The position numbers and the translations under genes were made by a program. Under the pieces are notes generated by a model. That model did no database searches, was not told the origin of the DNA, and saw nothing but the letters and a program-made list of their open reading frames with translations. From positions 54,135-118,134 of the forward strand of contig JAPLVZ010000011.1 of the NCBI GenBank assembly GCA_026396805.1: 64,000 bases of DNA. Direction: 5' to 3'. Positions 2,477 through 31,310 of this stretch are shown in pieces (positions within the stretch are counted from its first letter, which is position 1; the number at the start of each line of letters is the position of its first letter). The DNA is from Candidatus Falkowbacteria bacterium. Its GTDB lineage: Bacteria; Patescibacteriota; Patescibacteriia; Patescibacteriales; UBA12465.

Positions 2477-2514
2477 GGAGAAATACTTTAAAAAAAATTA
2501 AGTTTTCTCTTATC

Positions 2515-2543
2515 ATTCTAGTATAAGAAGCCTTGGCTGACAA
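2515..2543 (-). promoter_or_regulatory. sigma70-type promoter for dnaE (TTGTCA-17-TAGAAT)
   Basis: Minus strand: TTGTCA (2543-2538), 17-nt spacer, TAGAAT (2520-2515), 38 nt upstream of the dnaE ATG. Confidence 0.55.
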
Positions 2544-2544
2544 C

Positions 2545-2573
2545 TTGACACCATTTTATAAAAAATGTATAAT
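2545..2573 (+). promoter_or_regulatory. perfect-consensus sigma70 promoter (TTGACA-17-TATAAT) with no CDS downstream
   Basis: TTGACA 2545-2550, 17-nt spacer, TATAAT 2568-2573. Sits back-to-back with the dnaE promoter. Confidence 0.7.
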
Positions 2574-2579
2574 TGAAGT

Positions 2580-2760
2580 AGTTCTTCATTTTAACTAGGT
2601 TTAGAACTGAAACCCGGGACGGGATAGGCAGGTTAGTGTTGTATTCGTAATTCTCATTCACTCATTTTCCCTACCGGGAAGGCTTCTTTACATAGGAGCC
2701 TTTTTCATAAAAGGAGCCTTTTTTCTTATAAGAAGAGCCGGCGACCCGGCTCTTTTATTA
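2580..2760 (+). ncRNA. candidate ~180-nt small RNA, family unknown
   Basis: Bounded by the consensus promoter and an intrinsic terminator, with no ORF. Visible stems: AGTTCT/AGAACT, CCCGGGACGGGA/TCCCTACCGGG, AAGGCT/AGCCTT. Confidence 0.4.
2733..2760. terminator. intrinsic terminator between the convergent candidate sRNA and parB
   Basis: Stem GAGCCGG (2735-2741) / CCGGCTC (2746-2752), loop CGAC, followed by TTTTATT. Confidence 0.65.
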
Positions 2761-2792
2761 TATCTGTCTGGTTATTGGTTATCGCCATCTGT

Positions 2793-3677
2793 CTATAACT
2801 TGTTTATTTTTTTTAATATCGCTATTAATTCTTCTTCACTATAAAAATCAATCACTATCTGGCCGCGTTTGCCCCGTCTCTTTAATTCCACTTTCGTCCC
2901 CAAAAATTCGCCCAATTCGTTTTCTTGGGCGCGGTCGGAATAATCTTTTTCCTTTGTTTCTTTAGTGCCGGTCAATCTTTTGATCTCCGAACCGGTGGCC
3001 GCGACCGTCAGGTTCTGGCGCAAGATTTTCTTCAGCATGTTCAGCTGTTTCGCCTCGCTTTCCAAGCTTAATAAATATTTAGCATGCGCCTCGGAAATCT
3101 TGCCGTCAGCTAATGCCTCTTGAATCGCCGGCGGCAGAGCTAAAAGACGTAAAGCGTTGGCGACGCTCGAACGAGCCTTGCCGACTTTTTTGGCCGTCTC
3201 TTCTTGAGTAATATTAAATTCATCAATCAAACGCTGATAAGCTCGGGCGATTTCCAAGGGATTAAGATTTTCGCGCTGAAGGTTTTCTATCAAAGACAAT
3301 TCTAACTTCTTCTGATCCTTCTCCTCTCGGACTATCACCGGCACTTCTTTTAAGCCGATGAGTTTGGCGCTACGCAAACGGCGTTCGCCGGCGATAAGTT
3401 CGAACTTGTCCCCTTTCCTGGTAACGATTAAGGGCTGAATTATTCCGTGCTGTTTAATAGATTCCGCCAGATCATTTAAAGCGCTTTCAGAAAAATGCGT
3501 CCGCGGCTGTTGGGGATTAATATCTATCCTATCGGGACTTATTCTTAGGATTCTGTCGCCGTCGTTTAAAACCACGGTTTCCTCTTCCGAGCTGGCCGCT
3601 TTAAAAGGGTTTTGTCCGTAAGTAACGGTTTTTTTGGGGATTAAGGAGCCGAGTCCTCGGCCTAAACCTTGAGGCAT
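2793..3677 (-). CDS. parB: chromosome partitioning protein ParB/Spo0J
   Basis: 294-aa ORF with the ParB-box motif LIVTRKGDKFELIAGERRLRSAKLIG and HTH TQEETAKKVGKARSSVANALRLL. Confidence 0.93.
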   Translation of the reverse strand: MPQGLGRGLGSLIPKKTVTYGQNPFKAASSEEETVVLNDGDRILRISPDRIDINPQQPRTHFSESALNDLAESIKQHGIIQPLIVTRKGDKFELIAGERRLRSAKLIGLKEVPVIVREEKDQKKLELSLIENLQRENLNPLEIARAYQRLIDEFNITQEETAKKVGKARSSVANALRLLALPPAIQEALADGKISEAHAKYLLSLESEAKQLNMLKKILRQNLTVAATGSEIKRLTGTKETKEKDYSDRAQENELGEFLGTKVELKRRGKRGQIVIDFYSEEELIAILKKINKL

Positions 3678-3709
3678 ATATTATTTAAAAAAAATAAAGA
3701 ATTTAAAAA

Positions 3710-4474
3710 TTATTTTTCCAAGCTCAAAATTTCCCGCGCCAAACCTTCATAAGCCTTGCCGCCCTTGGATTTCGGATCGTAATGTAAAATAGAACGGCCG
3801 TAACTCGGCGCTTCCGCCAGACGGACGCTGCGCGGGATGACGGAACGGAAAATACGATTCGGGAAATATTGATACAATTCGCCCATGACCGATTCCGATA
3901 ATTTATTGCGGCGGTCAAACATAGTTATGACCGCGCCCATAATGCCTAGACCGGGCTTTAAATTATTTTGGACCAAGCCGATAGTTTCCAAGAGCTGGCT
4001 TAACCCCTCTAGGGCGTAATATTCGCTTTGGATAGGGATAAGAACTTCATCGGCCGCGACCAGACTGTTGACCGTCAAGAGCCCGAGCGAAGGCGGGCCG
4101 TCAATGATAATATAATCAAAATCTTTTTTAACTTCTTCTAAAATATTGGACAGGAGGAATTCGCGATTATCAAGACCAACCATTTCAACGCTGGCCCCGG
4201 CCAAAGATATGGTCGCCGGAGCGATATGAAGACCTTTTTGAACTGTCCTTTTTATGACTTCAAAGAGCGGCTTATTGCCGACCAGAGCCTCATAAATACC
4301 GACTTCTAAAGTACGATGATCGATTCCCAGTCCGGAAGTCGCGTTCGCTTGAGGATCAATATCGACTAAGAGAACCCGTTTGCCCAGGTGAGCCAAATAG
4401 GCGCTAAGATTGACGGAAGTTGTGGTTTTCCCGACCCCGCCTTTTTGGTTAACGATGGCAATTATTTTCCCCAT
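3710..4474 (-). CDS. parA: chromosome partitioning ATPase ParA/Soj
   Basis: 254-aa ORF. Deviant Walker A NQKGGVGKTTT, plus LLVDIDPQANATSG. Lies directly upstream of parB. Confidence 0.94.
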   Translation of the reverse strand: MGKIIAIVNQKGGVGKTTTSVNLSAYLAHLGKRVLLVDIDPQANATSGLGIDHRTLEVGIYEALVGNKPLFEVIKRTVQKGLHIAPATISLAGASVEMVGLDNREFLLSNILEEVKKDFDYIIIDGPPSLGLLTVNSLVAADEVLIPIQSEYYALEGLSQLLETIGLVQNNLKPGLGIMGAVITMFDRRNKLSESVMGELYQYFPNRIFRSVIPRSVRLAEAPSYGRSILHYDPKSKGGKAYEGLAREILSLEK

Positions 4475-4504
4475 ATACAGATATTATATAGCAAAGAATC
4501 CCTT

Positions 4505-4533
4505 TTGACAATTAATAATTTATTGATTATACT
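4505..4533 (+). promoter_or_regulatory. sigma70-type promoter for tRNA-Leu (TTGACA-17-TATACT)
   Basis: TTGACA 4505-4510, 17-nt spacer, TATACT 4528-4533. The tRNA starts 19 nt downstream. Confidence 0.65.
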
Positions 4534-4551
4534 AAACTCGTAATAATAATC

Positions 4552-4638
4552 GCCCGAGTGTCGAAACTGGTAGACGATCACGACTCAAAATCGTGCGGCC
4601 TCACGGCCATGAGGGTTCGACTCCCTCCTCGGGCACCA
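4552..4638 (+). tRNA. tRNA-Leu(CAA), class II long variable arm, CCA encoded
   Basis: Hand-folded. Acceptor GCCCGAG/CTCGGGC; anticodon arm CACGA-CTCAAAA-TCGTG; variable arm GGCC-TCAC-GGCC; T arm GAGGG-TTCGACT-CCCTC; 3' end ACCA. Confidence 0.92.
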
Positions 4639-4683
4639 AAACGGAACCAATCGGTTGGCAACTATTATTATCAATTAAATTTT

Positions 4684-5967
4684 ATGAATATAAAAAAATA
4701 TTTGAGTTTAGTTTTTGTTCTAACATTTCTAATCGTTGGTGCAAGAACAGTTAAAGCAGATGACGGAGGACCAAACAGCGCTTTTTGGGTAATCGATCAT
4801 AAAACAAATTGTGTAAGTGTAATCAATCCAGAGGCCACAGGCGCTAACGCTTTTCTTGTTTTTGATTATTCCGCTAAGGTAGGTCAAACTCGCGGCAAAC
4901 CTTGGACTATTGTTGAAAAAGGAAAATGTTATGAAGTCGATGACGGAACAGAAGATATGTATTTGATAAAAATTGTAAAAGGAAACGAACGAGATGTGTT
5001 CTCAAATTATACTTCTTATAATTCCACAGACAGTATTCCGCAAATATTTTGCAAAGATAACGCAAGTAATAATCAATATCATGATTATGATTACAGTACA
5101 ACTACACTTGGATATTCAATCACACCCATGCGTTTTTTGGGAGAAAATTCAGTAACCACAACCGCATCGGAATTAATACATTTCACTGGTATCACTGCTA
5201 ACGCCCTTTCCCCGACAAAATATGATTTTGGATTTCCTGTAACTAGTTTTAGTTCGATGATGCCAGAGGAATTAAAACCGATAGTGAATTATCCGTCTTT
5301 TGTTTCAGCAAGTAATTTATACATATCTCTCGCAAAACAATTAGTTAGCACACTCCAATCTTGTGATACTCGTGTTCGTGTTGAGCGTCAATATAATTTT
5401 TTTGATGTAAAAGGAGATTATTCATTTTTAGATGTGAAAAATATTGTTTGGAGACTTGCTAACAATAAAGATGTGATTGTTCAAACATCCAATCGCCAGT
5501 TTAATGATGGTGTTCCTTCAAATATTATAGAATCAAAACCAGATTTACTAAATGAAGTAGACCTTATGGGTTGCAAAACTGCGTTCAGTGGTTTTATACA
5601 AGCACATCAAACAGACTTCAGTACGATTGATCGTTTAGCGCAAGAAGTTATTGCAAAATATCCTAGTGCTTTGAAAAAAGGTGAAAATGATTATTTGTCG
5701 CCGATTAGTTTAAAAAATAGTGCTGAAACTTCAAAAATTCTTGCATTCGCAAATAATTCTAGTACTACATCAGGAATTGTCACAACACCACCAACACAAA
5801 CGCCACAAGTTGTTACGCCAACAGTTTTAGACGAACCAACACCAGAGAAAAAAATTGATCTACTTGTTAATTCTAAAAATCCGTTAATGCGGGCGTATGT
5901 CTATTTACCAATCCTTGCGCTTGTCGGAATAATTATTTTCTTCTTACTTAAAAAACGCCAGAAATAA
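4684..5967 (+). CDS. hypothetical secreted protein with C-terminal membrane anchor
   Basis: Start moved to ATG 4684 because the track start at 4558 overlaps tRNA-Leu. Signal peptide MNIKKYLSLVFVLTFLIVGARTVKA; Pro/Thr linker; C-terminal TM plus KKRQK tail. Confidence 0.75.
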   Translation: MNIKKYLSLVFVLTFLIVGARTVKADDGGPNSAFWVIDHKTNCVSVINPEATGANAFLVFDYSAKVGQTRGKPWTIVEKGKCYEVDDGTEDMYLIKIVKGNERDVFSNYTSYNSTDSIPQIFCKDNASNNQYHDYDYSTTTLGYSITPMRFLGENSVTTTASELIHFTGITANALSPTKYDFGFPVTSFSSMMPEELKPIVNYPSFVSASNLYISLAKQLVSTLQSCDTRVRVERQYNFFDVKGDYSFLDVKNIVWRLANNKDVIVQTSNRQFNDGVPSNIIESKPDLLNEVDLMGCKTAFSGFIQAHQTDFSTIDRLAQEVIAKYPSALKKGENDYLSPISLKNSAETSKILAFANNSSTTSGIVTTPPTQTPQVVTPTVLDEPTPEKKIDLLVNSKNPLMRAYVYLPILALVGIIIFFLLKKRQK

Positions 5968-6302
5968 TGTTTATCGAAAATGCAATTTTGCTCGCGTACG
6001 CCACAACAATCATTTCGGAAATCGCAATCATTCTCGCGATACAACGCCCGAGGGAAATTTGGCAGTGGATAGTTGCGATATTCCTTATTAACTCTTTAAC
6101 TCACCCTCTAGTCATATATCTGTTGCGTGTGCAAGGTGCGCCATATATTCCGGTTGAATTTGGAACATTCTTAATAGAAATGATTTGGTATAAATTGGCG
6201 TTTAATTTGAATTGGAAGCGCTCAATGATTGTTTCAGGGATAGCAAATGCTTTTTCAATTATTGTTGGCGTTGGTATAAGATTACTTTTTGGTTTACAAT
6301 AA
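5967..6302 (+). CDS. hypothetical small integral membrane protein
   Basis: 111-aa ORF with 3-4 hydrophobic segments. Its start overlaps the stop of the upstream gene (ATAATG coupling). Confidence 0.6.
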   Translation: MFIENAILLAYATTIISEIAIILAIQRPREIWQWIVAIFLINSLTHPLVIYLLRVQGAPYIPVEFGTFLIEMIWYKLAFNLNWKRSMIVSGIANAFSIIVGVGIRLLFGLQ

Positions 6303-6493
6303 ATAGGCGGCGCGCCAGTTTCACTGGCACGAAATTCGGCGGCGGCGGAAAGCGAGTGCGGGCAAAAATTCCTTCCCCCCAACCCCCTTCCTTTTTGCCC
6401 GCCCGAGCGTTCAGTTTTGGTTCTGCCGCGCGAAGCGCGGCAATCAGTCAGTTTCGTTCAAAATAGGTTCGAGCAGAGTTGTATAATTCCACC

Positions 6494-6530
6494 AAAAAAA
6501 GACGGGTACTTTCGGTCCCCGTCTTTTTTT
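6494..6530. terminator. bidirectional intrinsic terminator between convergent genes
   Basis: A-run, stem GACGGG (6501-6506) / CCCGTC (6518-6523), then T-run 6524-6530. Confidence 0.7.
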
Positions 6531-6575
6531 ATCCTAAAATTATGGCAATCGGAAATTATCACGTTTGAAAATTAA

Positions 6576-7709
6576 TTATTTTAAAGCGGCGATTATCCCT
6601 CCGCCCAAAACCCGCTTCTGATTATAGAAAACAACGCTCTGCCCCGGCGTCACCGCGCGCTGCGGTTTGGCGAAAGTAACCAGGTAATCCGTTTTATTTC
6701 GGGAGCCCGGCTTATTTTTTCGGCCGCTTTTATCATTTAAAGTCACGACGCAACTGACGGCCGGATGACCGTAGCGGATAACCACGCCGCATTTGAAAGA
6801 TTTTCTCGGCGTTCGGCCGGAGAGCCAATTGACTTTCTTGGCAATTAAACCCTTCTTATATAAAACGCGCTCATCCCAGTTCTTGACGACATAGAGGATA
6901 TTTTTCCGATAATCGAATTTCGCCGCGTAGTAAGGTCCGGTTCCGCCGACCAGACCGCGGCGCTGGCCGATAGTATAAAGCGGCAAGCCTTGATGCTCGC
7001 CGATTTTTTTGTCGGTGTCTAAGGTTCTGATATCGCCGGGGATGAGCTTCAGATATTTTTTTAAAAAATTATTATGGCTGCCGGACAAGAAACAAATATC
7101 CTGGCTTTCCGGCTTAGCCGCGACTTTTAAGCCGAATTTCGCGGCTAATTTTCGAACTTGCGGTTTGGTATAAGTTCCGAGCGGAAATAATAGATGCTTT
7201 AATTCAGCGGGCGTAAACGTATAGAGAAAATATGATTGATCTTTATTTTTGTCTTTAGCTTTAAATAATCGGAATTCCCGACCGACTTTCTTGATGTTCA
7301 AATAATGGCCGGAAGCGACATAATCAAAACCAAGGGCGCGGGCGTGTTTCAACAAAAGCCCTAGTTTAATCCGCTTATTGCAGACAACGCAAGGATTAGG
7401 CGTCCGGCCGGCTCCGTATTCGCTTAAGAAATTATCCACGACCGCCTTCTTAAAAGCGCCGGAAAAATTAAAAGTATAAAATGGAATGCCGATTTTACCC
7501 GCGACCGCGCGGGCGTCCAGAAGCGACTCCAGAGAACAACAGCGATTCTCCGCTTCTGAACCAAGCGTTTCATCTTTCCAAAAATGCAAAAAGACTCCGG
7601 AGACGTCATACCCTTGGTTTTTCAGAAGCTGGGCGGCGACGCTGGAGTCAACTCCGCCGGACATAGCGACCAGGACTTTTTTCCCGGAAAGAGATTTATC
7701 TGATTTCAT
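6576..7709 (-). CDS. mnmA: tRNA 2-thiouridine(34) synthase MnmA
   Basis: 377 aa. PP-loop VLVAMSGGVDSSVAA, plus NPCVVCN and SQDICF motifs typical of MnmA/TrmU. Confidence 0.92.
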   Translation of the reverse strand: MKSDKSLSGKKVLVAMSGGVDSSVAAQLLKNQGYDVSGVFLHFWKDETLGSEAENRCCSLESLLDARAVAGKIGIPFYTFNFSGAFKKAVVDNFLSEYGAGRTPNPCVVCNKRIKLGLLLKHARALGFDYVASGHYLNIKKVGREFRLFKAKDKNKDQSYFLYTFTPAELKHLLFPLGTYTKPQVRKLAAKFGLKVAAKPESQDICFLSGSHNNFLKKYLKLIPGDIRTLDTDKKIGEHQGLPLYTIGQRRGLVGGTGPYYAAKFDYRKNILYVVKNWDERVLYKKGLIAKKVNWLSGRTPRKSFKCGVVIRYGHPAVSCVVTLNDKSGRKNKPGSRNKTDYLVTFAKPQRAVTPGQSVVFYNQKRVLGGGIIAALK

Positions 7710-8871
7710 GTAATTCTTTAAATAATTCTAAATATTCTCCCGCGGTTTTATCCCAAGAAAACATCTGGGCCCGGGCATACCCCAGGGCTATCAAGCGGAC
7801 GCGTAATTTGGCGTCAGTTAAAACGAGTTTTATCGCCTCAAATATTTCTTCCGATTTATAGGGGTTGACCATTATTCCGGCGCCCGCGACTATTTCCGGA
7901 AGGCTGGAAACATTGGAGCAAACGACCGGCAGGCCGTAAGTCATCGCTTCTAAAGGCGGAAAACCGAAACCTTCGTAATAAGACGGATAAACGAAAACAG
8001 CGGCGCGTGAATATAAGATTTCTTTTACTTCTTCATCGATATAACCGAGAAATTTAATTTGATCTTTATAGGGCGAGGCCTGCCAATCGGCATAAATCGG
8101 CGCGTTCTTCCAGCCGGGAGCGCCGGCTAAAATCAGACCGAGATTTTTAAAATTATCCGCCGCCTCTTCGCTCTCGCGGCGCAATTTGTCGTAAGCTTTA
8201 ATCAGGCCGCTGATATTTTTGCGCGGCTCAATATTACCGACATAAAGAATAAAAGGTCCGCTGATGTTTAGTTTACTAAGACAAGTTTCAACTTTCTCCG
8301 CCACCCAGTCCTTTTTAACGACATTATTTCCGGAATAAATCACTTTTATTTTAGCGGCGCCAATGCCGGCTAATTCCATAATGTCATTTTTCGTATTGGC
8401 CGAAACCGCGATTATTTTATCGGCCTGCCTTAATATTCTTTTGACGCCCAGAGATTTATGCCAAAAATTCTTGCGCCAACTGAAAAATCGCGGATATCTT
8501 AAAAAAGATAAATCATGGACGGTAATAACTTTTTTCAACCCGGATTTTGAACCGCTTAGTTTCGTAAAATTAAAATGCGGCGACCAAAAAATATCCGCTC
8601 CTCCCAAAACTTTATCCAGACGCGGATAGCCAAAAACTTTCTGCAGACAATAATTAAAGATTTTATTCGGCCAGTGGAGGCCGATAACTTGAAAATTTTG
8701 GCTGTTCCATTTATTTAAACGCCCGCCAAGATCATGATAGGAATTATAGAATAACTTATATTCATTAATCTTATCGGCCTTCAATATGGCCGACAATAAA
8801 TTAGCGGTATATTCCGATATGCCGCTATAATGCTTATCCATTAAAACTCTGATATCGACCCCTATTTTCAT
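7696..8871 (-). CDS. glycosyltransferase family 4 (GT-B, GT1-type C-terminal domain)
   Basis: 391 aa with the C-terminal motif VFVYPSYYEGFGFPPLEAMTYGLPVVCS. Confidence 0.85.
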   Translation of the reverse strand: MKIGVDIRVLMDKHYSGISEYTANLLSAILKADKINEYKLFYNSYHDLGGRLNKWNSQNFQVIGLHWPNKIFNYCLQKVFGYPRLDKVLGGADIFWSPHFNFTKLSGSKSGLKKVITVHDLSFLRYPRFFSWRKNFWHKSLGVKRILRQADKIIAVSANTKNDIMELAGIGAAKIKVIYSGNNVVKKDWVAEKVETCLSKLNISGPFILYVGNIEPRKNISGLIKAYDKLRRESEEAADNFKNLGLILAGAPGWKNAPIYADWQASPYKDQIKFLGYIDEEVKEILYSRAAVFVYPSYYEGFGFPPLEAMTYGLPVVCSNVSSLPEIVAGAGIMVNPYKSEEIFEAIKLVLTDAKLRVRLIALGYARAQMFSWDKTAGEYLELFKELHEIR

Positions 8872-12330: not shown

Positions 12331-12358
12331 AAAAGCCACCCGAAGGTGGCTTTTTTTA
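12331..12358 (-). terminator. intrinsic terminator of the 1298-aa gene
   Basis: Stem GCCACC-CGAA-GGTGGC (12335-12350) flanked by A/T runs. Overlaps the stop codon. Confidence 0.7.
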
Positions 12359-15300
12359 TTGATTATTAGCGTAAAGTTCTCTTACTTGATTGGGGCTCAA
12401 GGCGCCCTTCCAAAGGCTTAAACTGTCAATCTCCGCCTTTTCCCCATTGGTCATTATCTTTATCCCCCTGACTTTTTCCCCGTCAGGCATCCAGATTAAA
12501 GACGTGCTCGCCTTCTCTTCTCCGTCCACATAAAAGTTCAATTTATAACGATAGGAATCATAAACATAGGTCAAATAATGCCAATCGCAACCGCCGGGTA
12601 TGGCCTTATTAAGACCCTCCACTAAAACTCCGTAGCTATTGTTAAACCAATAATCCAGACGATAATTATCCGCCAATATGGCAAAAAGATTTTTTTCGTT
12701 ATTCGCCCCGCCGGTCAAATAAATATCGGCTTGGCCGTTATAAGGGTCGGAGCGATCGCGCCACCAGAAAGCCATAGACAAATCTTTAGTTTCCGGAAAA
12801 TTTTCCAGCGCGCCGGAGTGAGGACGACCGGTGATGCTCTTAATAGCGTAATTATTAGGACCGCGGCTAGTCCAAGAGTTGGCGGCTAAATTAAGCACGG
12901 CTCCGCCGACGCTATCTAGCGCCGTCAGACCAATATCTTCTTCAAAACTCCAAAAATGAAGAAGTTCGGCCGCCGTTTGCGCTTCGCGTACCGGCATCGG
13001 ACTGTATGGCGCGTCGGTTTCATAATCCGCTTTTATTTCCAAGGCCGTGAGCGGTCTGTTCCAAAGCCCCAGTTCATCAAACAAAACCGCGACGCTCTCG
13101 CTTCTAATTTCTAAATCAGTCATCACCGGCAAACGTTGCCAAAAAAATTCTTGGACGACCAGAAGCGAGTCGATATAAACTTCCCAATGACCCGCCGCCT
13201 GGTTTATCACTAGAGTCAATTTATGCCATTTATAATCATCGGGAATTCCTTGATAATACCGGAATTCAGAATCCGGCAAGCCTTCTATTTCTAGCATGCT
13301 GGCGTCGGTTCTAATCGAAAATCTTTCTCCCGCGGCGTTTGATAAAACGGTTTTTATGCTCGGCACATCCCATGACTTCTGATAATAGAAACTCAAAGAA
13401 AATCCGTTATTCATATCAACCGCCGGATCAAGAAAAATATTTAACGGCTGTTCGCCGCGATTGCCGAACTGACGCGCGCAATCCCATTTCCCGACCGCCC
13501 AAGTCCCCTCTCCGTAGCATTCGTTAAAATGCCAAATGTCGGTCAGGCCGGCGGAGACAATCGGAATCGGCGGAGAAAATAAATCTAAGTTGACGATCGG
13601 TTCAGGGCTAACTGCGTCAGGATCGTCGGAAGCAATCAGATTAAAATCGGTGGAATTATTATGAGTATCAGCCAGACGGTTTAAAATATAAGCATCCGGA
13701 ATTTCCAGCGCCGGTCCGTTACCTTCATAATAAAGAGCCGCGGAACCAAAGCCGACTAAATCAATAATATCCGGATCAGTACTGGAACTAATCGCGTCAC
13801 TCCCTAAATAAAAACTATATCCGTTCCCGTCCCAAACGAATTCTGTTCGTGTCGCAATCGCGTCCGCTTGGTCAAGATAATAACTATTGGCGTCATCTCG
13901 CGCTATCAGATAACTGTTATGCGCCTTAATTACCGTGCCTCCCGGATAAAAACCGTCACCGGCGTCTCCGAAGCGCATTAATATATTCGGATCTTGTGTG
14001 GAAACCGATTTTTCTAAGCGATAACCAGCAATCCCCAAGTCAAAATCGTTATCAGTCGGATTAAATAATTCTATCCAGTCATTATCGCCGGTACTATAAA
14101 TCTTCTGTATCAACAGTAATCGACCCCAATCAATATTTTCGGTTGAGGTCGCGGTTTCTGATTCATTAGGGTCCGTAGAAGTCGCGGTTTCCGAAGTTGA
14201 AGTCGCGGTTTCCGAAGTTGAAGTCGCGGTTTCCGACTCATTAAGGTTAGTTGAAGTGGCTGTCTCTGGAGTTGAGGTGGCGGTTTCCGAGGTATCGTTA
14301 ATATTAGTGTTTAAAGCAATAGACGGGTCATCGCTTAAAACTAATTCAAAATCTATGGCATTATCATCAGACGAACTGGCACGCCGCAAAATATAATTGT
14401 CCTTGATCTCCGGCGCCGGCCCGCTGCCTAAGAAATAAGTCGCGTCGGCGCCGAATCCGACCGCGTCAACGATATCCGGGCCTTGACTGGAGCTAATCGC
14501 CCCGGTACCTAAAAATAATGTATAACCCGAGCCGGGCCAACTAAATCCTTCTCGAATAACCAGAGCATCGGCCTTTTGCTTATAATAATCACTCGCGCCG
14601 CCGTTTACAATTAAATATGTGTCATGCGCCTTGATTATCGTTCCGCCGGGGTAAATTCCGTCATCAACATCGCCGACGCGAAATAATAAACTTGGATCAA
14701 CAGCGGTTTTCGCCCTTTCCAGACGATAACCGGACGCGGCCAAATCAAAATCATGGTCGGTCGGATTGATTAATTCTACCCAATCATTATCGCCGGTGCT
14801 ATAAATCCTATTGATAATCGCCAATTTCGGATAATTATCAGCCGCGACACTGGAAGAAGAACCACCGGAACTGCCGGAGGAAGAGCCGCCGGAGCCGCCG
14901 GAACCGCCGCTATGAACTGTAGCGGAACTGACGACGGGCGCGGCCGGACTGTAATAAGCCGGACTGGCTGTTTTAGTCTGACTGATCGTTTTAGCCTGAC
15001 TGGCGGCCACGGTCGTACTCGCTTTAGCGGCCGCGGGCGTGTTGGTTTTAGACGCGCTAATTTTAGACGCGCTAATTTTACTTGTGTTAGTTTTAACCGC
15101 AACGGCTTTAGTCCCGGTAGTCTGGTTAGTGCCGGTTCCAACACTTGAACTTTTTGTACTGCTGTTAATCGCCGTTTTTGCCGCCGTCGCTTTATTTACA
15201 GTCACGACTTTCTTAGTACCGCTCGCGGCGCCTGTCGACTGTAAATCATCATTAATTAAAGTCAAAGACGTTCCAGCTCCGGAATTAAAAATTTTCTGAC

Positions 15301-16252
15301 TTAAGTTTTTCGCTATTTCTTTAGTTTTTACGGCAACTTTCACGGCCGTTTCTTTAATGGCCGCGCCGACAATCTTTAATGAGGAAATCGGATTATTAAT
15401 CAGGCTCCAGCGCGCCACTAAGGCCTTGACGTTCAGCGGGCCATTAATCTCGGCGCGCGAAAAAGACGAAGAAATCTCCACATCCGCCGCCACCGCCGTC
15501 AAGGTAGGCTGAAGAAACTGGGTATAAGGCAGAAAAATATAGCGCTCCCCCTCGTGTTCCAAGCCGACATCATAACCGATAATTTCCGGAGCCGGAATTA
15601 AAATATCCGTCCGCCGCGCAATCTTGGAAAATTCCCGCTCCTTGGAAAAACAATCTCCGGAGGAATTAACGACGCTAGAATTATCAAAACCGTCGGGCGT
15701 AATATCGACGGCATAATAAGCCGGGTCATACTCCAGGGCTCCAAGATTATTGGGGTTATAGACATTCGCGCTTTCATATAATTTTTCCGTCAAACCGACG
15801 CAAGTCCATTCCTTATCGCCGGGACCTTTCTGATTGTGAAAATCAAAATCATAACCGAGATTTTTTCCGACTAAACTCTTGGCGAGAGCGACGACGCGCG
15901 CCTGTTGCAGGGCGCTGACAGAGCTGGGCATGCGCGCGCCGAGAAAAGTTTCGCCGTCGGCCCGATTAACGAAATATTTCGCCGGATTCTTGATTACGCC
16001 TCCGCTCATCGCCTCCACGATATAATCCTGCCCGTCCTCTTTACCGATATAAATGGCGACATGGCCGGAATAAATATTCCTGATTATACCTTTTTCCGAA
16101 TAAACTAGCGGGTCTTGGCTATAACCGAACATTTTTCCGTCGCCGGAAGTTCGGTATAATAAAGTTCCCGGCGGCATCGCTCGGCATAATTCCGGAAGAA
16201 AAAATAAACAAACCGCTAAAGCCAACGTAAATAATGATTTTTTATATTTCAT
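12356..16252 (-). CDS. giant secreted multidomain protein: permuted papain-like (YiiX/NlpC-P60-like) domain + 2x lamin-tail-like (LTD) + 2x LamG/ConA-like lectin domains
   Basis: - Signal peptide MKYKKSLFTLALAVCLFFLPELCRA.
- His..Cys pair: GHVAIYIG and EWTCVGLTEKLYE.
- S/T/A/G low-complexity linkers.
- LTD cores STGDNDWVELINPTDHDFDL and STGDNDWIELFNPTDNDFDL.
- LamG-like ends WHKLTLV..VYIDSLLV..DELGLWNRPLTALEI and WHYLTYV..FYVDGEE..IDSLSLWKGALSPNQV. Confidence 0.8.
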   Translation of the reverse strand: MKYKKSLFTLALAVCLFFLPELCRAMPPGTLLYRTSGDGKMFGYSQDPLVYSEKGIIRNIYSGHVAIYIGKEDGQDYIVEAMSGGVIKNPAKYFVNRADGETFLGARMPSSVSALQQARVVALAKSLVGKNLGYDFDFHNQKGPGDKEWTCVGLTEKLYESANVYNPNNLGALEYDPAYYAVDITPDGFDNSSVVNSSGDCFSKEREFSKIARRTDILIPAPEIIGYDVGLEHEGERYIFLPYTQFLQPTLTAVAADVEISSSFSRAEINGPLNVKALVARWSLINNPISSLKIVGAAIKETAVKVAVKTKEIAKNLSQKIFNSGAGTSLTLINDDLQSTGAASGTKKVVTVNKATAAKTAINSSTKSSSVGTGTNQTTGTKAVAVKTNTSKISASKISASKTNTPAAAKASTTVAASQAKTISQTKTASPAYYSPAAPVVSSATVHSGGSGGSGGSSSGSSGGSSSSVAADNYPKLAIINRIYSTGDNDWVELINPTDHDFDLAASGYRLERAKTAVDPSLLFRVGDVDDGIYPGGTIIKAHDTYLIVNGGASDYYKQKADALVIREGFSWPGSGYTLFLGTGAISSSQGPDIVDAVGFGADATYFLGSGPAPEIKDNYILRRASSSDDNAIDFELVLSDDPSIALNTNINDTSETATSTPETATSTNLNESETATSTSETATSTSETATSTDPNESETATSTENIDWGRLLLIQKIYSTGDNDWIELFNPTDNDFDLGIAGYRLEKSVSTQDPNILMRFGDAGDGFYPGGTVIKAHNSYLIARDDANSYYLDQADAIATRTEFVWDGNGYSFYLGSDAISSSTDPDIIDLVGFGSAALYYEGNGPALEIPDAYILNRLADTHNNSTDFNLIASDDPDAVSPEPIVNLDLFSPPIPIVSAGLTDIWHFNECYGEGTWAVGKWDCARQFGNRGEQPLNIFLDPAVDMNNGFSLSFYYQKSWDVPSIKTVLSNAAGERFSIRTDASMLEIEGLPDSEFRYYQGIPDDYKWHKLTLVINQAAGHWEVYIDSLLVVQEFFWQRLPVMTDLEIRSESVAVLFDELGLWNRPLTALEIKADYETDAPYSPMPVREAQTAAELLHFWSFEEDIGLTALDSVGGAVLNLAANSWTSRGPNNYAIKSITGRPHSGALENFPETKDLSMAFWWRDRSDPYNGQADIYLTGGANNEKNLFAILADNYRLDYWFNNSYGVLVEGLNKAIPGGCDWHYLTYVYDSYRYKLNFYVDGEEKASTSLIWMPDGEKVRGIKIMTNGEKAEIDSLSLWKGALSPNQVRELYANNQ
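14143..14292. repeat. in-frame 18/21-bp tandem repeats encoding (S)ETATST units
   Basis: GAAGTCGCGGTTTCCGAAGTT-type units repeated about 7 times between the two LTD modules. Confidence 0.85.
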
Positions 16253-26711: not shown

Positions 26712-26975
26712 ATGGCCGACAAAATTATTTTACCATCTAAAGAAATAATAACCCCTATCTGGATTTCTGTTTCCGAGGCCGCCTCTTTGGGTGGGGTCGG
26801 AGGCAAGACTATCCGCCGCGCCATTAAAACTGACCCTAATTTACGTTTCCGCATAGTCAAGAATCGCTACCAGATAGAATTCGGCTCCCTGCTCTACTTT
26901 CTCCACAAGAACACCAAGCTCAAAAATAAGCTTAAAGACTTCGGCCTCGGCCAATATGTCAAAGAATGGAAATAA
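26712..26975 (+). CDS. small excisionase/MerR-type helix-turn-helix DNA-binding protein
   Basis: 87 aa. WISVSEAASLGGVGGKTIRRAIK..RFRIVKNRYQI resembles the HTH_17/excisionase-family fold pattern. Confidence 0.65.
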   Translation: MADKIILPSKEIITPIWISVSEAASLGGVGGKTIRRAIKTDPNLRFRIVKNRYQIEFGSLLYFLHKNTKLKNKLKDFGLGQYVKEWK

Positions 26976-27007: not shown

Positions 27008-27042
27008 AAAAAAACATCCCGGATTCCGACGGGATGTTTTTT
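27008..27042. terminator. bidirectional intrinsic terminator
   Basis: Stem ACATCCCG (27014-27021) / CGGGATGT (27030-27037), with an A-run before and a T-run after. Lies between convergent genes. Confidence 0.75.
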
Positions 27043-27069: not shown

Positions 27070-27351
27070 TTATAGAACGGTATCCTTAACCGCTTTCGCC
27101 AAGCGGAACTTAACTACAGTTTTAGCCGGGATATGGATAGTGGCTCCGGTCGCCGGATTGCGGCCTTCTCTCGCTTTTCTCTTCGCTTTCACTAATTTAC
27201 CGAAGCCAGGAACGATGCATTCACCGCTCTTCTTGACTTCTTTGTAAACGAAATCCGCTAGATTATCCATAAAAGTGGCGGTTTCCTTCTTGCTTAAACC
27301 GGCCGTTTCGGATAAAGCGGCGATCATCTGCGACTTTGTCATTTTTGACAT
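27070..27351 (-). CDS. hup: DNA-binding protein HU
   Basis: 93 aa. MTKSQMIAALSE..VPGFGKLVKAKRKAREGRNPATGATIHIPAKTVVKFRLAKAVKD is the classic HU/IHF fold signature. Confidence 0.93.
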   Translation of the reverse strand: MSKMTKSQMIAALSETAGLSKKETATFMDNLADFVYKEVKKSGECIVPGFGKLVKAKRKAREGRNPATGATIHIPAKTVVKFRLAKAVKDTVL

Positions 27352-27524
27352 AGTTTTTGTATGGGGATTATTATAAGCGCCATAGAGCGCTTATTAATAA
27401 TTTCCAAAAATTATTAAAATTAATTAATATTTCTAAATCTTTTTAAGGGACTCTTATTGAAAACTCAATAGATATAAGTATATTATAGCACACTTAATAA
27501 AAACATGCCAATATAAGGGGCTTT

Positions 27525-28271
27525 TTACGAACGAACGACAATTCTCCCATTAATTACCGCCAAAACTTTTAATCCAAGCTTTTTGAAATTTAACCTTCGT
27601 CCGCTGGCGCGTAAGCGTTTTCTTAATTCCTTGACTGAAGGTATTTTCCGATCATAATAATTTAGCGGCGCCGCTTTTAAGTTGACAAATAAATCAAAAA
27701 TACTGTTATCTTTTACCGCCGCCGGATATTTTTCCAGAGCGCCTAAAACTTGGCCGACCGGCAATAATTTAAATTTTTGACCCTTGGTTTCTTGGCGATA
27801 GAAAGAGCCGTAATGCTTTAGTCTGGCGACACTTGTATACATAGTTCCGCGGCAAAACGGGCTGTCGCAAAAACAAGGATAAAGGAATTCTTTCTTATCG
27901 CTATCATCCGGATCAAAGCCATAATCAATCGTTAATTCTTCGCCCGACCAAATACGACGGAGCGCAAAATATAAAGTATGGCCATAATAGAAATAAGCGT
28001 CGCAATTCGGCGCGCAGGAATGGTTGATTAGATGAACACCGGCGGCTTTTATATCCACGGGGAAAATAGACAAACCATTATTATTATAATCCATGGAATA
28101 ACAGGCATTGCCGTATCTTTTTTCCAGAATCTCCGCCTTGGCGTCCTCCATCAATAACCCGAGATAATCGCCGATAATCGTACCGGCGGGAATCTCCTGA
28201 CGAACAAAAACGCCGCGCCCTTTTTTCTTGGTTTTTTTAATTTGATAGTAACCGGGGGGTAATAAGAGCAT
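27525..28271 (-). CDS. SET-domain protein-lysine methyltransferase family protein (with C-terminal extension)
   Basis: 248 aa. Motifs GRGVFV, NHSCAPN, EELTIDYG, and post-SET Cys cluster CFCDSPFCRG. Confidence 0.85.
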   Translation of the reverse strand: MLLLPPGYYQIKKTKKKGRGVFVRQEIPAGTIIGDYLGLLMEDAKAEILEKRYGNACYSMDYNNNGLSIFPVDIKAAGVHLINHSCAPNCDAYFYYGHTLYFALRRIWSGEELTIDYGFDPDDSDKKEFLYPCFCDSPFCRGTMYTSVARLKHYGSFYRQETKGQKFKLLPVGQVLGALEKYPAAVKDNSIFDLFVNLKAAPLNYYDRKIPSVKELRKRLRASGRRLNFKKLGLKVLAVINGRIVVRS

Positions 28272-28272
28272 A

Positions 28273-28806
28273 TTATTTTTTAAGCGACGATTTCCTCAAT
28301 TCCGGCCACATCCGTTCCAGATTCTTTTTCCTGAATTCCGAATTAAGCGAATCTTGACCGGTCACCAGCCCCCGACAATTAGGCGCGCCGCAAGCGCACT
28401 TCATCTTAAATTTCTGATCGAACATCCAGCCATAGTCCAAAAATAATTCTTCATCCTTCTTAATGTTTCTGGCCGCCACGTAATTCCCCCTTTTGTCATA
28501 GGCCACATTAGGAGAACAGCTGTGATTAAAGTACCAGGACGTCCCGATGTTATTCAAATCAGCCGGCAGACAATATTCAGCATCCTCGTCAAGAACGGCG
28601 AAACTATTGATCTTTTTTTGAGTGATCTTATCCAGCTTTTTAAAATAACGCCGAGGTAAAATAACCGCTTCTTCCGGCGAATCAATGTCGGCGATAATAG
28701 CGCCTTTTTTAATATTACGAACCGCGAAAGTCGCTACTTCTCCGGGCAAAGCTTTAGACGGACGAATCTCAAACATAAGCCGGGGAATGGTTTTAACTTT
28801 TTTCAT
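28273..28806 (-). CDS. SET-domain methyltransferase family protein
   Basis: 177 aa. Motifs NHSCSPN, EELFLDYG, and post-SET CACGAPNCRG. Its stop is 1 nt from the start of the next SET gene. Confidence 0.85.
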   Translation of the reverse strand: MKKVKTIPRLMFEIRPSKALPGEVATFAVRNIKKGAIIADIDSPEEAVILPRRYFKKLDKITQKKINSFAVLDEDAEYCLPADLNNIGTSWYFNHSCSPNVAYDKRGNYVAARNIKKDEELFLDYGWMFDQKFKMKCACGAPNCRGLVTGQDSLNSEFRKKNLERMWPELRKSSLKK

Positions 28807-28841
28807 TATATAGTTAGTTAGTTTAATAAGTCGCCACTTAA

Positions 28842-31310
28842 CTACATCACGTTCGACTGGAGATGGTAATAAGGCGGATTGTCTTTATAGCGCTTAATGG
28901 CGAGACGAATAATTTCTTCCAAAAAATCGCCGTAATTCATCCCGATAACTTCAGCGGAAGCGGAAAATGTTCCTTCCACGTCCAGGGACGGATTCGGATT
29001 AAGCTCCAGCACGTAAGGATTATTATTCTTATCGACGCGGATTTCAATGCGGCCGTAGTCATGGCAGTCCAGGATATTATAAGTATCAAGCGCGATTTCT
29101 CCCAAGAGCTGTTCCAGTTTTTTGCCGATATTTTTCGGCGGTCTCTGCACGACTATCTTTTTATATTCCCCGCCGTCGGCATATTTCGCTTCAAACGGAT
29201 AAATATGCCATAAATTTGCCGGCAGATTATCAAAAATAGACCGCGCCAGAGGTAAGATGCGCAAATCATCTTCTTCCGAACCGATAATCGGAACATCATA
29301 CTCATCGCCGTCAATATACTCTTCAATCAAAGCCGGACGGCCGATTTCTTTCAAAACTATGGCCAGTTGACGGGTTAATTCCTCTTTGTTCCTGACGACG
29401 GAGTCATTAGTGATACCAATAGAATTATCGGTATTAGCCGGCTTGACGATGAGCGGATATTTCAAATCTTCGCGGATATCATCCTCCATGGAATAAACAT
29501 AATCCCATTCCGGCGTCGGAATTTTATGATAGCTTAATAATTTCTTGACGCGAATCTTATCAATGCATAAACCCAAAGTAAAAGGATTGGAGCCGGTATA
29601 AGGAATCTGAAGAGTGTCAAGAATTGAGGCGACGTGCGGCTCCAATAAACTGGAGTTATTGATGCGCTCGCAGACATTGAAAACGAGGTCAACGTCGCTA
29701 TTCTTCAGGTCGTTAAAAGCTTTCGGCAAATCGTTAAAATCAAAAAAACTGATCTTATAGCCTCTTTCTTTCAAGGTCTTCTCCACATCCATCCCGATAA
29801 CCGTCAGATCTTTTTCCACCACCGTTTCCTGGTCGGCGCCGCCTTCTTCGTACATATTACAGGCGATGCCGATATGAAGATTGCGCTGGTTGGAAATCGC
29901 CATTTTGCGGATTTTTTCAATCTTGGAACGGCGCTTGAGAATATCCACGTTAATCGCCGAAGCCGAGAACGGCGAGCGGCGCGTCGTCTTGCCGATGGAC
30001 GAGGCGGGATGAAATTTCGCGACTTCGTAATAAATCGCTTTTTCCGCCTCGCGCAGATTATCCTGGGCGTCCAGCGGATTATGGCCGGAAACCAGGACCC
30101 AGCCCAGATATTCATAGCCGTCTGGCGGTGAGAGAACCGAATCGCCTATTTTTTTCTCAAACTGGAATTCTTTAACAAAAGGGCGGCGTTTCAAATCTTC
30201 ATCAATGTTTAAATTAACGATGATGCCGGAGTAATCCGAAGAAAATGTTTCCGCCACCAAGTATTCATAGGGCCCGGCCGGAAATTCAAGTTTAGGAATA
30301 TAAATACCGCAAGCGATCTTAACCAGATTTTCCACCAAATCAACGTGCCAAGCGGCTTTAACGCTCGGATAAACCTCGTCGCCTCCCAGGCGCAGGTTTA
30401 CTTCTAAAGGAATAGGCCCGGTGGCGGTTGATTTAGCTTCAAAATGAATACAGCCGTTTAAGACACCGAGTTTTTCCAAGGTTTCGTCGGCCATGGCAAT
30501 CAGTTCGGCCTGATGCTTCGGCGGCAAACTGGACGGCGTCATGCGCGTCGTTTCAATAAAAAAAGGCTCCTTGGTCTTACCATTATCGGAAAGAGCGCAG
30601 AATTTTATCTTGCCGTTTTGAATCAGGATATCCAAATCAACCTCATCGCCGTCAATATATTCTTCCACAAAAACTTCCAAGCCATCAGCTAGGGCTGATT
30701 CTATCTTCGGAGAAATATTCTTCTTGATATAATCATAGCTTTCACGCAGTTCTTCTTCATTATTGACCTTAACGACAAAGGCGCTGGACGCGCCATAGGC
30801 CGGCTTAACGACTAAAGGAAAACTTAAAAGCTTCAGGGCTTCATCTAAGTCCTTATGACTCTTCAGAGCCCGAAACTTAAGCGCCGGCAGATTATTGACG
30901 GCGCAAAATTCACGAAAAGAGTATTTGTTTCTGACTTGAGCGGCAACCTTATAAGGGATATTGATCAAATGGTACTTATCGGCAATTTTAGCGGTCAACA
31001 AGACATCATCTTCCAGGAAAGTTAAAACTCCATCCATTTTAACGCTCGGATTATTGCTTAAGAATTTATCCAGCGCACCCAGCGATTCCGCGTAATTAGA
31101 GGTATCGGCCGAAAGAGAATGGTCCACATAAGGCTGAAAGCTATTCGCTTCCTTGCTTAGAATAATGATTTTTACCCCTAAATTCTTAACTTTCTTGATA
31201 AAAAGTTTTTTAGAATGGAGAGGATCGTTCGCTCCGGTCGTATTAACTATTAAAACCGTCTTACCGACTAAAGGACTACGGTTGGAATCCGAATTGCCAT
31301 TGCCGTTCAT
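28842..31310 (-). CDS. fusion of two ATP-grasp ligase modules (N: L-amino-acid-ligase/carnosine-synthase-like; C: D-Ala-D-Ala-ligase-like)
   Basis: 822 aa.
- N half: FPLVVKPAYGASSAFVVKV..VFVEEYIDGDEVDLDIL..HFEAK..PLEVNLRLGG.
- C half: YPLIVKPANTDNSIGIT..ALIEEYIDGDEYDVPIIG..GRIEIRVDKNNNPYVLELNPNPSL. Confidence 0.8.
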   Translation of the reverse strand: MNGNGNSDSNRSPLVGKTVLIVNTTGANDPLHSKKLFIKKVKNLGVKIIILSKEANSFQPYVDHSLSADTSNYAESLGALDKFLSNNPSVKMDGVLTFLEDDVLLTAKIADKYHLINIPYKVAAQVRNKYSFREFCAVNNLPALKFRALKSHKDLDEALKLLSFPLVVKPAYGASSAFVVKVNNEEELRESYDYIKKNISPKIESALADGLEVFVEEYIDGDEVDLDILIQNGKIKFCALSDNGKTKEPFFIETTRMTPSSLPPKHQAELIAMADETLEKLGVLNGCIHFEAKSTATGPIPLEVNLRLGGDEVYPSVKAAWHVDLVENLVKIACGIYIPKLEFPAGPYEYLVAETFSSDYSGIIVNLNIDEDLKRRPFVKEFQFEKKIGDSVLSPPDGYEYLGWVLVSGHNPLDAQDNLREAEKAIYYEVAKFHPASSIGKTTRRSPFSASAINVDILKRRSKIEKIRKMAISNQRNLHIGIACNMYEEGGADQETVVEKDLTVIGMDVEKTLKERGYKISFFDFNDLPKAFNDLKNSDVDLVFNVCERINNSSLLEPHVASILDTLQIPYTGSNPFTLGLCIDKIRVKKLLSYHKIPTPEWDYVYSMEDDIREDLKYPLIVKPANTDNSIGITNDSVVRNKEELTRQLAIVLKEIGRPALIEEYIDGDEYDVPIIGSEEDDLRILPLARSIFDNLPANLWHIYPFEAKYADGGEYKKIVVQRPPKNIGKKLEQLLGEIALDTYNILDCHDYGRIEIRVDKNNNPYVLELNPNPSLDVEGTFSASAEVIGMNYGDFLEEIIRLAIKRYKDNPPYYHLQSNVM

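Follow-up and report, generated by a model that had tools for sequence, protein, structure and literature searches.

GshF (GshAB) makes a tripeptide by two ATP-dependent ligations on one polypeptide, in which the first module is a gamma-glutamylcysteine ligase and the second a Ddl-like (D-alanine-D-alanine-ligase-like) ATP-grasp module. In the alternative MurD2/MurL peptidoglycan route of Xanthomonas, an L-amino acid is ligated first and the C-terminal residue of the peptide is then epimerized; MurL is an ATP-dependent L-to-D epimerase acting on the C-terminal Glu of a peptide (PMC5808125). Here we describe a fused ligase encoded in a stretch of 64,000 nucleotides of contig JAPLVZ010000011.1 from Candidatus Falkowbacteria bacterium (the window). 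It joins a module of the L-amino-acid ligase (LAL) type to a Ddl-like module. We estimate a probability of roughly 55% that this ligase is the bifunctional core, conserved and with two active sites, of a pathway that occurs mainly in Patescibacteria and produces a short, tailored, nonribosomal peptide or pseudopeptide. We observe how the ligase is built, that its catalytic residues are intact, how far it is conserved and which genes are linked to it; sequential action of the two sites, the substrates and methylation of the product are what we infer.

The ligase is identical to MCX6794848.1, an NCBI entry from a Candidatus Falkowbacteria metagenome-assembled genome (MAG) that is named only "ATP-grasp domain-containing protein." Relatives in the databases are labeled in the same way or as "D-alanine-D-alanine ligase," "carnosine synthase" or "hypothetical protein." The gene and its parts are as follows.

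28842 to 31310, minus strand: coding sequence of the fused two-module ATP-grasp ligase, an uninterrupted open reading frame (ORF) of 822 amino acids
30009 to 31262, minus strand: N module (residues 17 to 434), with a Rossmann-like pre-ATP-grasp domain, ATP-grasp_4 and LAL_C2 (LAL architecture)
29877 to 30008, minus strand: linker between the modules (residues 435 to 478), of low model confidence and conserved sequence
28875 to 29876, minus strand: C module (residues 479 to 812), a Ddl-like ATP-grasp module

The initial annotation, which was made from the letters of the window alone, had proposed two dissimilar ATP-grasp modules in one polypeptide, placed their limits at about residues 1 to 440 and 470 to 822 and put the junction at about 29.9 kb; all of this proved correct. 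Its assignment of the N half to the LAL/carnosine-synthase type is borne out by Pfam matches to the ATP-grasp_4 core (residues 163 to 311; 8.5e-30, 103.9 bits against a gathering cut-off of 27) and to LAL C-terminal domain 2, LAL_C2 (residues 356 to 430; 3.5e-12, 46.9 bits against a gathering cut-off of 29.4). The best sequence match of this half in the PDB is the LAL BL00235 from Bacillus licheniformis (3vot, 2.4e-27), with BacD next. The C half, annotated as Ddl-like, indeed matches Dala_Dala_lig_C (residues 608 to 801; 6.5e-37, above the gathering score) and 30-odd D-Ala-D-Ala ligases in the PDB, of which 3r23 is the best (2e-26); the Pfam scan gave no match to Dala_Dala_lig_N in this half. 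We modeled the whole ligase with AlphaFold2 on the basis of 44 relatives, and the mean pLDDT came to 81. In Foldseek searches with this model, the closest structure to the N half was 3vot (TM 0.82 to 0.85) and the closest to the C half was the Ddl 3r5x (TM 0.84 to 0.87). Both halves thus belong to the ATP-grasp superfamily by Pfam scores above gathering, by similarity to LAL and Ddl structures and by their Lys, hinge, Mg-ligand and Arg residues. With only 27% identity to each other across just 134 residues, they are truly dissimilar and come from different ATP-grasp subfamilies. All six motifs quoted in the initial annotation, which did not state the strand, lie in this minus-strand ORF: PLVVKPAYGASSAFVVKV (residues 165 to 182), EEYIDGDEVDLD (216 to 227) and LEVNLRLGG (302 to 310) in the N half, and PLIVKPANTDNSIGI (619 to 633), EEYIDGDEYDVP (663 to 674) and LELNPNPSL (768 to 776) in the C half.

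The fusion is widespread. Full-length homologs of 805 to 836 amino acids with 62 to 94% identity fall into more than 120 protein clusters among the matches listed (NCBI, JGI, ENA and Logan assemblies), and a relative is encoded in 514 GTDB species genomes (one genome per species), most of them labeled Patescibacteria; where the record titles are informative, they refer to Falkow-, Komeili-, Roizman-, Jackson-, Peregrini- and Gracilibacteria as well as Paceibacterota. We fetched 80 of the 514 species genomes, and the residue and neighbor counts given below refer to these 80 genomes or loci. Patescibacteria have very small genomes and little biosynthetic capacity. Hence, the retention of the double ligase by hundreds of species, with a mean identity of 78% for the C module (80 loci), implies an important product. 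Standalone relatives of each half, sought among 1.84 billion cluster representatives, exist at 35 to 48% identity, and remote fused relatives at 28 to 47%, one of them on a contig labeled Bdellovibrionales. The genomic context of one standalone relative of the N half (P0145) was uninformative.

The linker is as conserved as the N module, with a mean identity to the window protein of 67% versus 65% (80 loci), although its model confidence is low (pLDDT below 50 at residues 436 to 440 and 448 to 461). It carries the motif FHPASSIGKTxRK..FSxSA, in which S437, S438, G440, T442 and S449 are invariant in the 44-sequence alignment (62 to 91% identity); S437 and G440 are kept in remote relatives as well. 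The linker may act as a lid, serve for docking or be a place of modification.

Both halves retain the residues expected of working ATP-grasp enzymes. The key residues of the N module are K129, K169, E216-I219, E223, H289, E291, E303, N305, R307 and G309-G310, followed by the acidic pair D311-E312. K129, K169, E216, E223, H289, E291, E303, N305, R307 and G310 are invariant in the 44 relatives and G309 is nearly so. The module contains the LAL motif E-x-N-x-R-x-G-G, which we aligned to E324 and R328 of BacD. The C half was mapped onto Yersinia Ddl, numbered as DdlB, with the following correspondences.

E15 of DdlB: E499, usually Glu in the family
K97: K585
K144: K623
S150: N629
E180-L183 (hinge): E663-I666
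E187: E670
K215-Y216 (omega-loop Lys-Tyr): K709-Y710
R255: R754
D257: E756
E270: E769
N272: N771
G276: S775

Invariant in the 44 relatives are K585, K623, E663-I666, E670, K709, R754, E756, E769 and N771, while Y710 varies between Tyr, Trp and Phe. The 17 catalytic residues that we checked are all kept in 77 of the 80 species genomes; in the remaining three, the gene is truncated by the end of a contig (two genomes) or carries the conservative change E756D (one genome). The C half is the better conserved of the two, with a mean identity to the window protein of 78% versus 65% for the N half (80 loci). The concern that one half might be degenerate can be set aside for the window protein, as the ATP-binding Lys, hinge Glu, Mg-ligand Glu/Asn and catalytic Arg are kept in both, and by these residues both modules are apparently active.

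An EEYIDGDE motif had been noticed in both halves and is indeed present twice. It aligns to EKWLSGPE of Ddl, is a generic adenine-hinge of ATP-grasp enzymes and says nothing on common substrates. The coding stretches of the two copies (30642 to 30665 and 29301 to 29324) are identical at 23 of 24 nucleotides in the window and at 16 to 24 of 24 in relatives. This spread rules out gene conversion between the two sites and shows that each copy is held by selection at the protein level; the close match in the window is coincidence combined with codon bias. Invariant acidic residues occupy positions at which the known enzymes have other residues, namely, D311-E312 at the position of W332 in BacD, and E548 and D628 at the positions of H63 and G149 in Ddl. 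A basic substrate may be the reason, and such a substrate would be in keeping with a methyltransferase of the lysine type.

Is the C half then a Ddl? Its scores against the NCBIfam models for Ddl, 193.6 bits for PRK01372 (cut-off 243) and 157.2 bits for TIGR01205 (cut-off 245.65), are too low for membership. The residues for catalysis and ATP binding in Ddl (K97, K144, E180-L183, K215, R255, D257, E270 and N272) have their equivalents in the C half; the set of residues and motifs that binds D-Ala (E15, S150, Y216; S281, L282; HGxxGEDG) is not preserved. Asn stands in place of S150 and Ser in place of G276, positions 780 and 781, which correspond to S281 and L282 in the D-Ala2 site, vary over the family, and HGxxGEDG has given way to the invariant NVCERINNSSLLEPH (NVCER..LLEPH type). 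Going by these comparisons, the C half cannot be shown to be a Ddl; for all its resemblance, it does not pass as a member of the family.

The most serious rival explanation is, all the same, that the C module is a housekeeping D-Ala-D-Ala ligase or a close variant, which supplies the dipeptide for MurF and is fused to a LAL of separate function. The best family and structure matches of the C half are Ddls, the catalytic set and the omega-loop K709-Y710 are kept, the equivalent of E15 is mostly Glu, and this is the better-conserved half. Moreover, the standalone protein P0178 (36 to 37% identity) has a Mur ligase and MurB encoded on its contig and scores no better against the Ddl model (181.7 bits) than the C half does, so that divergent Ddls of the candidate phyla radiation could fall under the cut-offs. 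Standalone proteins of the C-half type in general stay below the Ddl cut-offs. However, P0178 shares the non-Ddl motif NVCER..EPH. The scores under both cut-offs, the missing Dala_Dala_lig_N match and the changed D-Ala-binding positions all argue against a true Ddl, as does the loss of R754, E769 and N771 from the C half in several fused lineages. The context may point in the same direction: no homolog of a Mur ligase or MurB is encoded within the 64-kb window, and mur/dcw genes are absent among the recurrent neighbors of the 80 loci. We consider this explanation doubtful. The C half looks less like a housekeeping Ddl than like one of a subfamily of ligases for amino acids or peptides whose partners vary. 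Modules of the C-half type are also found fused to a radical-SAM lysine-2,3-aminomutase (P0244), an Acetyltransf_3 GNAT (P0197/P0218) and ATP-grasp_3 (P0264), and such fusions hint at chemistry around lysine or beta-lysine. Two loci encode an extra standalone Ddl-like protein of the NVCER type: the gene in L050 (5743 to 6873) runs into the beginning of the fused ligase gene, and that in L075 (2042 to 3091) lies 2.9 kb upstream of it.

The main clue to the function is the genomic context, which the initial annotation had missed: SET genes downstream of the ligase in the window and a GNAT partner in relatives. The two genes that follow the ligase encode SET-domain enzymes, both with the NHSCxPN, ELxxDY and post-SET Cys motifs.

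28273 to 28806, minus strand: SET1, a SET-domain methyltransferase of 177 amino acids (MCX6794847.1; SET 1.1e-12; NHSCxPN, ELxLDY, post-SET CxCxxxxC)
27525 to 28271, minus strand: SET2, a SET-domain protein-lysine N-methyltransferase of 248 amino acids (MCX6794846.1; SET 1.6e-17)

SET1 starts 35 nucleotides after the ligase stop codon and SET2 1 nucleotide after that of SET1, and no terminator-like site was found between the three genes. We predict that ligase, SET1 and SET2 are co-transcribed and that the SET genes are translationally coupled. SET genes lie beside the ligase in 19 of the 80 loci, including the distant loci L037, L075 and L080. At L083, a Bdellovibrionales-labeled MAG contig (JAGRAO010000088.1), positions 1 to 8531 hold a six-gene operon in which a relative of the ligase (28% identity, with a degenerate C half) is followed by ATP-grasp_3, a pyridoxal phosphate (PLP)-dependent decarboxylase, a LAL, a SET protein and a GNAT/CN_hydrolase protein. 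The dead C module of this relative appears to be compensated by the separate ligase genes. The occurrence of SET genes in distant loci and at L083 indicates that the link between SET and ligase is old.

Beyond SET2 lies a gene for HU (27070 to 27351), associated with a near-consensus extended -10 promoter-like site at 27482 to 27511 (TTGGCA, 18 nucleotides, TG-TATAAT) and a terminator with a 13-bp stem at 27009 to 27042; HU thus seems to form a unit of its own, probably one with high expression. We rejected HU as a conserved partner of the ligase, as it is adjacent in one syntenic clade only and has its own promoter and terminator. Divergent from HU runs an ORF of 87 amino acids (26712 to 26975, plus strand) without a Pfam match, which is conserved at this place in 21 related loci (cluster c6). 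The window also contains two very large ORFs on the minus strand, at 20759 to 24274 (1,171 amino acids) and at 12356 to 16252 (1,298 amino acids). The former has an N-terminus resembling a signal peptide, is rich in Ser, Thr and Ala and probably encodes a surface protein.

The most constant neighbor of the ligase in relatives is a GNAT protein of about 300 amino acids (Acetyltransf_6, FemAB/CelD-like), present in 38 of the 80 loci including distant ones, and located 3 to 32 bp downstream of the ligase in 35 of them. It is found even 2 bp downstream of a ligase relative with only 39% identity. Against NCBIfam, 2 of 11 members of this GNAT family gave a weak FemAB/PEP-CTERM match, and its profile found only chance-level matches in the PDB. 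In two close relatives of the window, L001 and L032, a GNAT gene of about 900 bp occupies the place of the 35-nucleotide gap between ligase and SET1 (28807 to 28841), from which it is cleanly absent in the window. L001 (95% identity) has the GNAT gene together with SET1 and SET2, and the GNAT gene is also missing in L012 and L016. Such differences among close relatives indicate that the tailoring genes turn over fast.

Other neighbors recur less often. A MurL-like gene directly adjoins the ligase in 9 of the 80 loci and is no more than 1.3 kb away in one other. It encodes a protein of about 455 amino acids with a PP-loop-like SFGKDS motif and a cluster of Cys residues; all six proteins tested match NF041275 remotely (best E-value 3.6e-8, about 23 bits against a cut-off of 700). 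A gene of the enolase superfamily, with L-Ala-D/L-Glu epimerase as its best match (3.7e-49, below the cut-off), is directly downstream of the ligase in L072 and is a cluster-mate in L077, where the gene directly downstream encodes an LPG_synthase_C-like protein (aminoacyl-tRNA transferase fold). An ATP-grasp_3 ligase is present in 7 of the 80 loci, a lysA-like PLP decarboxylase in 6, and Peptidase_M29 is encoded near two ligase relatives.

What might such a gene set produce? All recurrent partners are enzymes that act on amino acids or short peptides, by amide formation, C-terminal epimerization, decarboxylation, N-methylation or as aminopeptidases. A conserved gene that might encode a protein target does not accompany the ligase in the 80 loci, and we therefore favor a small molecule as the product. 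By the chemistry of its family, each module would bind Mg-ATP and phosphorylate a substrate carboxylate to an acyl-phosphate, which would then be attacked by an amine. We hypothesize that the LAL-type N module joins two free amino acids and that the Ddl-like C module adds a further residue or makes a second amide in the same pathway. In the window, SET1 and SET2 would N-methylate the product. In relatives, the FemAB/CelD-like GNAT may form a third amide or acylate the product, the MurL-like or L-Ala-D/L-Glu-epimerase-like enzyme may turn a C-terminal L residue into D, and a third ATP-grasp ligase and the LysA-like PLP decarboxylase may also act. Of the two products suggested in the initial annotation, a tripeptide from successive ligations is putative, and nothing in our analysis supports an iterative polymer.

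These neighbors suggest that the product is a small-molecule peptide and not a protein tag; a peptide for the cell envelope or for peptidoglycan side chains is the most plausible. Characterized relatives of several partners (MurL, AE epimerase, FemX-type transferases and LysA) act on peptidoglycan precursors or turnover products, which suggests this class through homologies that are below threshold. A bolder and rather unlikely version is that the ligase is the hub of an unrecognized route, mainly in Patescibacteria, to a cell-wall-type peptide with D residues that needs no racemases for free amino acids. In this route the LAL module would join L-amino acids, a MurL-like or dipeptide epimerase would invert the C-terminal residue as in the MurD2/MurL bypass, the Ddl-like module and the Fem-like GNAT would extend the peptide, and the SET enzymes would N-methylate it.

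Several observations weigh against a core ligase for a tailored peptide. The GNAT protein, its most conserved partner, is absent throughout the 64-kb window, and L032 (97% identity) keeps the GNAT gene but lacks both SET genes. Tailoring genes are hence dispensable, and the SET link could be looser than it seems. Remote homologs of SET1 (32 to 49% identity) occur in unrelated contexts, and none of P0340, P0343 and P0347 adjoins the ligase, so that the link does not generalize from the SET side. SET domains are known as protein methyltransferases, not as enzymes of small molecules. The matches of the neighbors to MurL, lysA and AE epimerase are all far below the curated cut-offs, and about half of the distant loci are without a recognizable partner gene, which makes the pathway a mosaic. 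Finally, alignments indicate that one module is dead in remote fused relatives and that a second module can persist without catalysis; since the fusion can outlive catalysis in one module, two intact sites are no proof of sequential action.

A second rival explanation takes the SET domains at face value. Like RimK and TTL, the ligase would add amino acids to the C-terminus or to side chains of a protein, and this protein, perhaps HU, would also have its lysines methylated by the SET enzymes. SET domains are protein-lysine methyltransferases, and the gene after SET2 is that for HU, both in the window and at loci of the Falkowbacteria type. There is also a precedent in the eukaryotic TTLL12, which combines a SET domain with an ATP-grasp domain of the TTL type (PMC3520985). 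However, the modules of the ligase belong to families that ligate free amino acids (LAL and Ddl), and matches to RimK and TTL are below the cut-off or marginal. HU has its own strong promoter-like site and terminator, and its adjacency is confined to one closely related syntenic group and absent at the SET-linked loci L037, L075, L080 and L083. The other partners (PLP decarboxylase, dipeptide-epimerase-like and MurL-like proteins) are small-molecule enzymes, and the ligase is not accompanied by a conserved candidate for the target. We regard modification of a protein as unlikely.

It is more unlikely still that one module alone is catalytic in vivo and the other serves as a structural or regulatory pseudo-enzyme or as a substrate-binding domain. 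There are fused proteins in which this may have happened: alignment to a hidden Markov model shows that P0126, P0127, P0129, P0132, P0144/P0275 and P0272 lack R754, E769 and N771 in the C half, some also K585, K623 and E670, and that P0131 lacks E303, N305, R307 and G309-G310 in the N half, with the fusion kept in each case. However, the window protein and its counterparts in 77 of 80 species genomes retain all ATP, Mg and catalytic residues of both halves, which is unexpected for a pseudo-enzyme; beside the losses in remote relatives, this strict retention of both sites in the clade of the window gains meaning. We thus rank the rivals to a core ligase of a peptide pathway, in decreasing plausibility, as a true Ddl, the tagging of a protein (HU or another) and a noncatalytic module. 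An artefact of assembly or gene calling, a worry raised with the initial annotation, can be dismissed, as the same architecture of 805 to 836 amino acids with a conserved linker recurs in hundreds of independent assemblies (the clusters from four sources and the 514 species genomes) and the GC content is even over the junction.

A search of one literature library for the fusion, for its SET/GNAT/MurL-like neighborhood and for a link between SET and ATP-grasp proteins in Patescibacteria found nothing relevant. The fusion is an uncharacterized, widely conserved architecture within the well-understood ATP-grasp superfamily, and its chemistry as such is unsurprising. If the product is a cell-envelope or methylated peptide, it would help to explain a missing part of surface construction or decoration in these episymbionts. 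Such a product would also imply the first small-molecule role for bacterial SET-domain enzymes, which to our knowledge are otherwise known only as protein methyltransferases. For enzymology, the ligase would be a ready-made two-step peptide ligase with possible biocatalytic use. Its conservation in minimal genomes and its repeated linkage to SET and peptide-epimerase genes make it a worthwhile target for experiments.

How does the ligase compare with the known systems? We rejected three candidate identities. CPS (carbamoyl-phosphate synthetase) is excluded by a root-mean-square deviation of about 25 A, the 27% identity of the halves over 134 residues and a CPSaseII score of 52.6 bits against a cut-off of 1027; cyanophycin synthetase by the lack of a Mur_ligase domain and a TIGR02068 score of 55.7 bits against a cut-off of 850. 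A graspetide (MdnB/MdnC) ligase is excluded because RimK has no significant stretch, the flanks of 67 and 35 nucleotides are too short for a precursor ORF and there is no conserved small neighbor. The large subunit of CPS also carries two ATP-grasp modules per chain and is the only type of PDB entry that Foldseek aligned, poorly, over both halves; however, its halves are an internal duplication of one type, whereas those of the ligase come from different subfamilies.

With the LALs BL00235 (3vot), BacD/YwfE (3vmm) and RizA (4wd3), the N module shares the three-part architecture, LAL_C2 and the catalytic motif E-x-N/A-x-R-x-G-G. It differs from them in its identity of only 17 to 22% in structural alignments, a score of 58.6 bits against the BacD equivalog cut-off of 850 (NF053745), the invariant Asp (D311) at the position of W332 in BacD and the fusion to a second ligase. 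The C module shares with Ddl (DdlB, e.g., 4zqi and 3r5x) the fold, the ATP-binding lysines, the hinge, the omega-loop Lys-Tyr and the equivalents of R255, E270 and N272, and differs in the D-Ala2 pocket, the HGxxGEDG motif, the score below the cut-off and the mur context, of which none is seen in the window. The MurD2/MurL route has a similar logic of ligation followed by epimerization, and MurL-like genes abut the fused ligase in nine lineages. These neighbors are, however, only remote relatives of MurL, none is present in the window, and ligation here falls to an ATP-grasp enzyme instead of a Mur ligase. The Pfam scan of the 822-residue ligase found no gamma-glutamylcysteine ligase domain as in GshF; for the logic of two ligations on one polypeptide, GshF/GshAB is nevertheless the best functional analogy.

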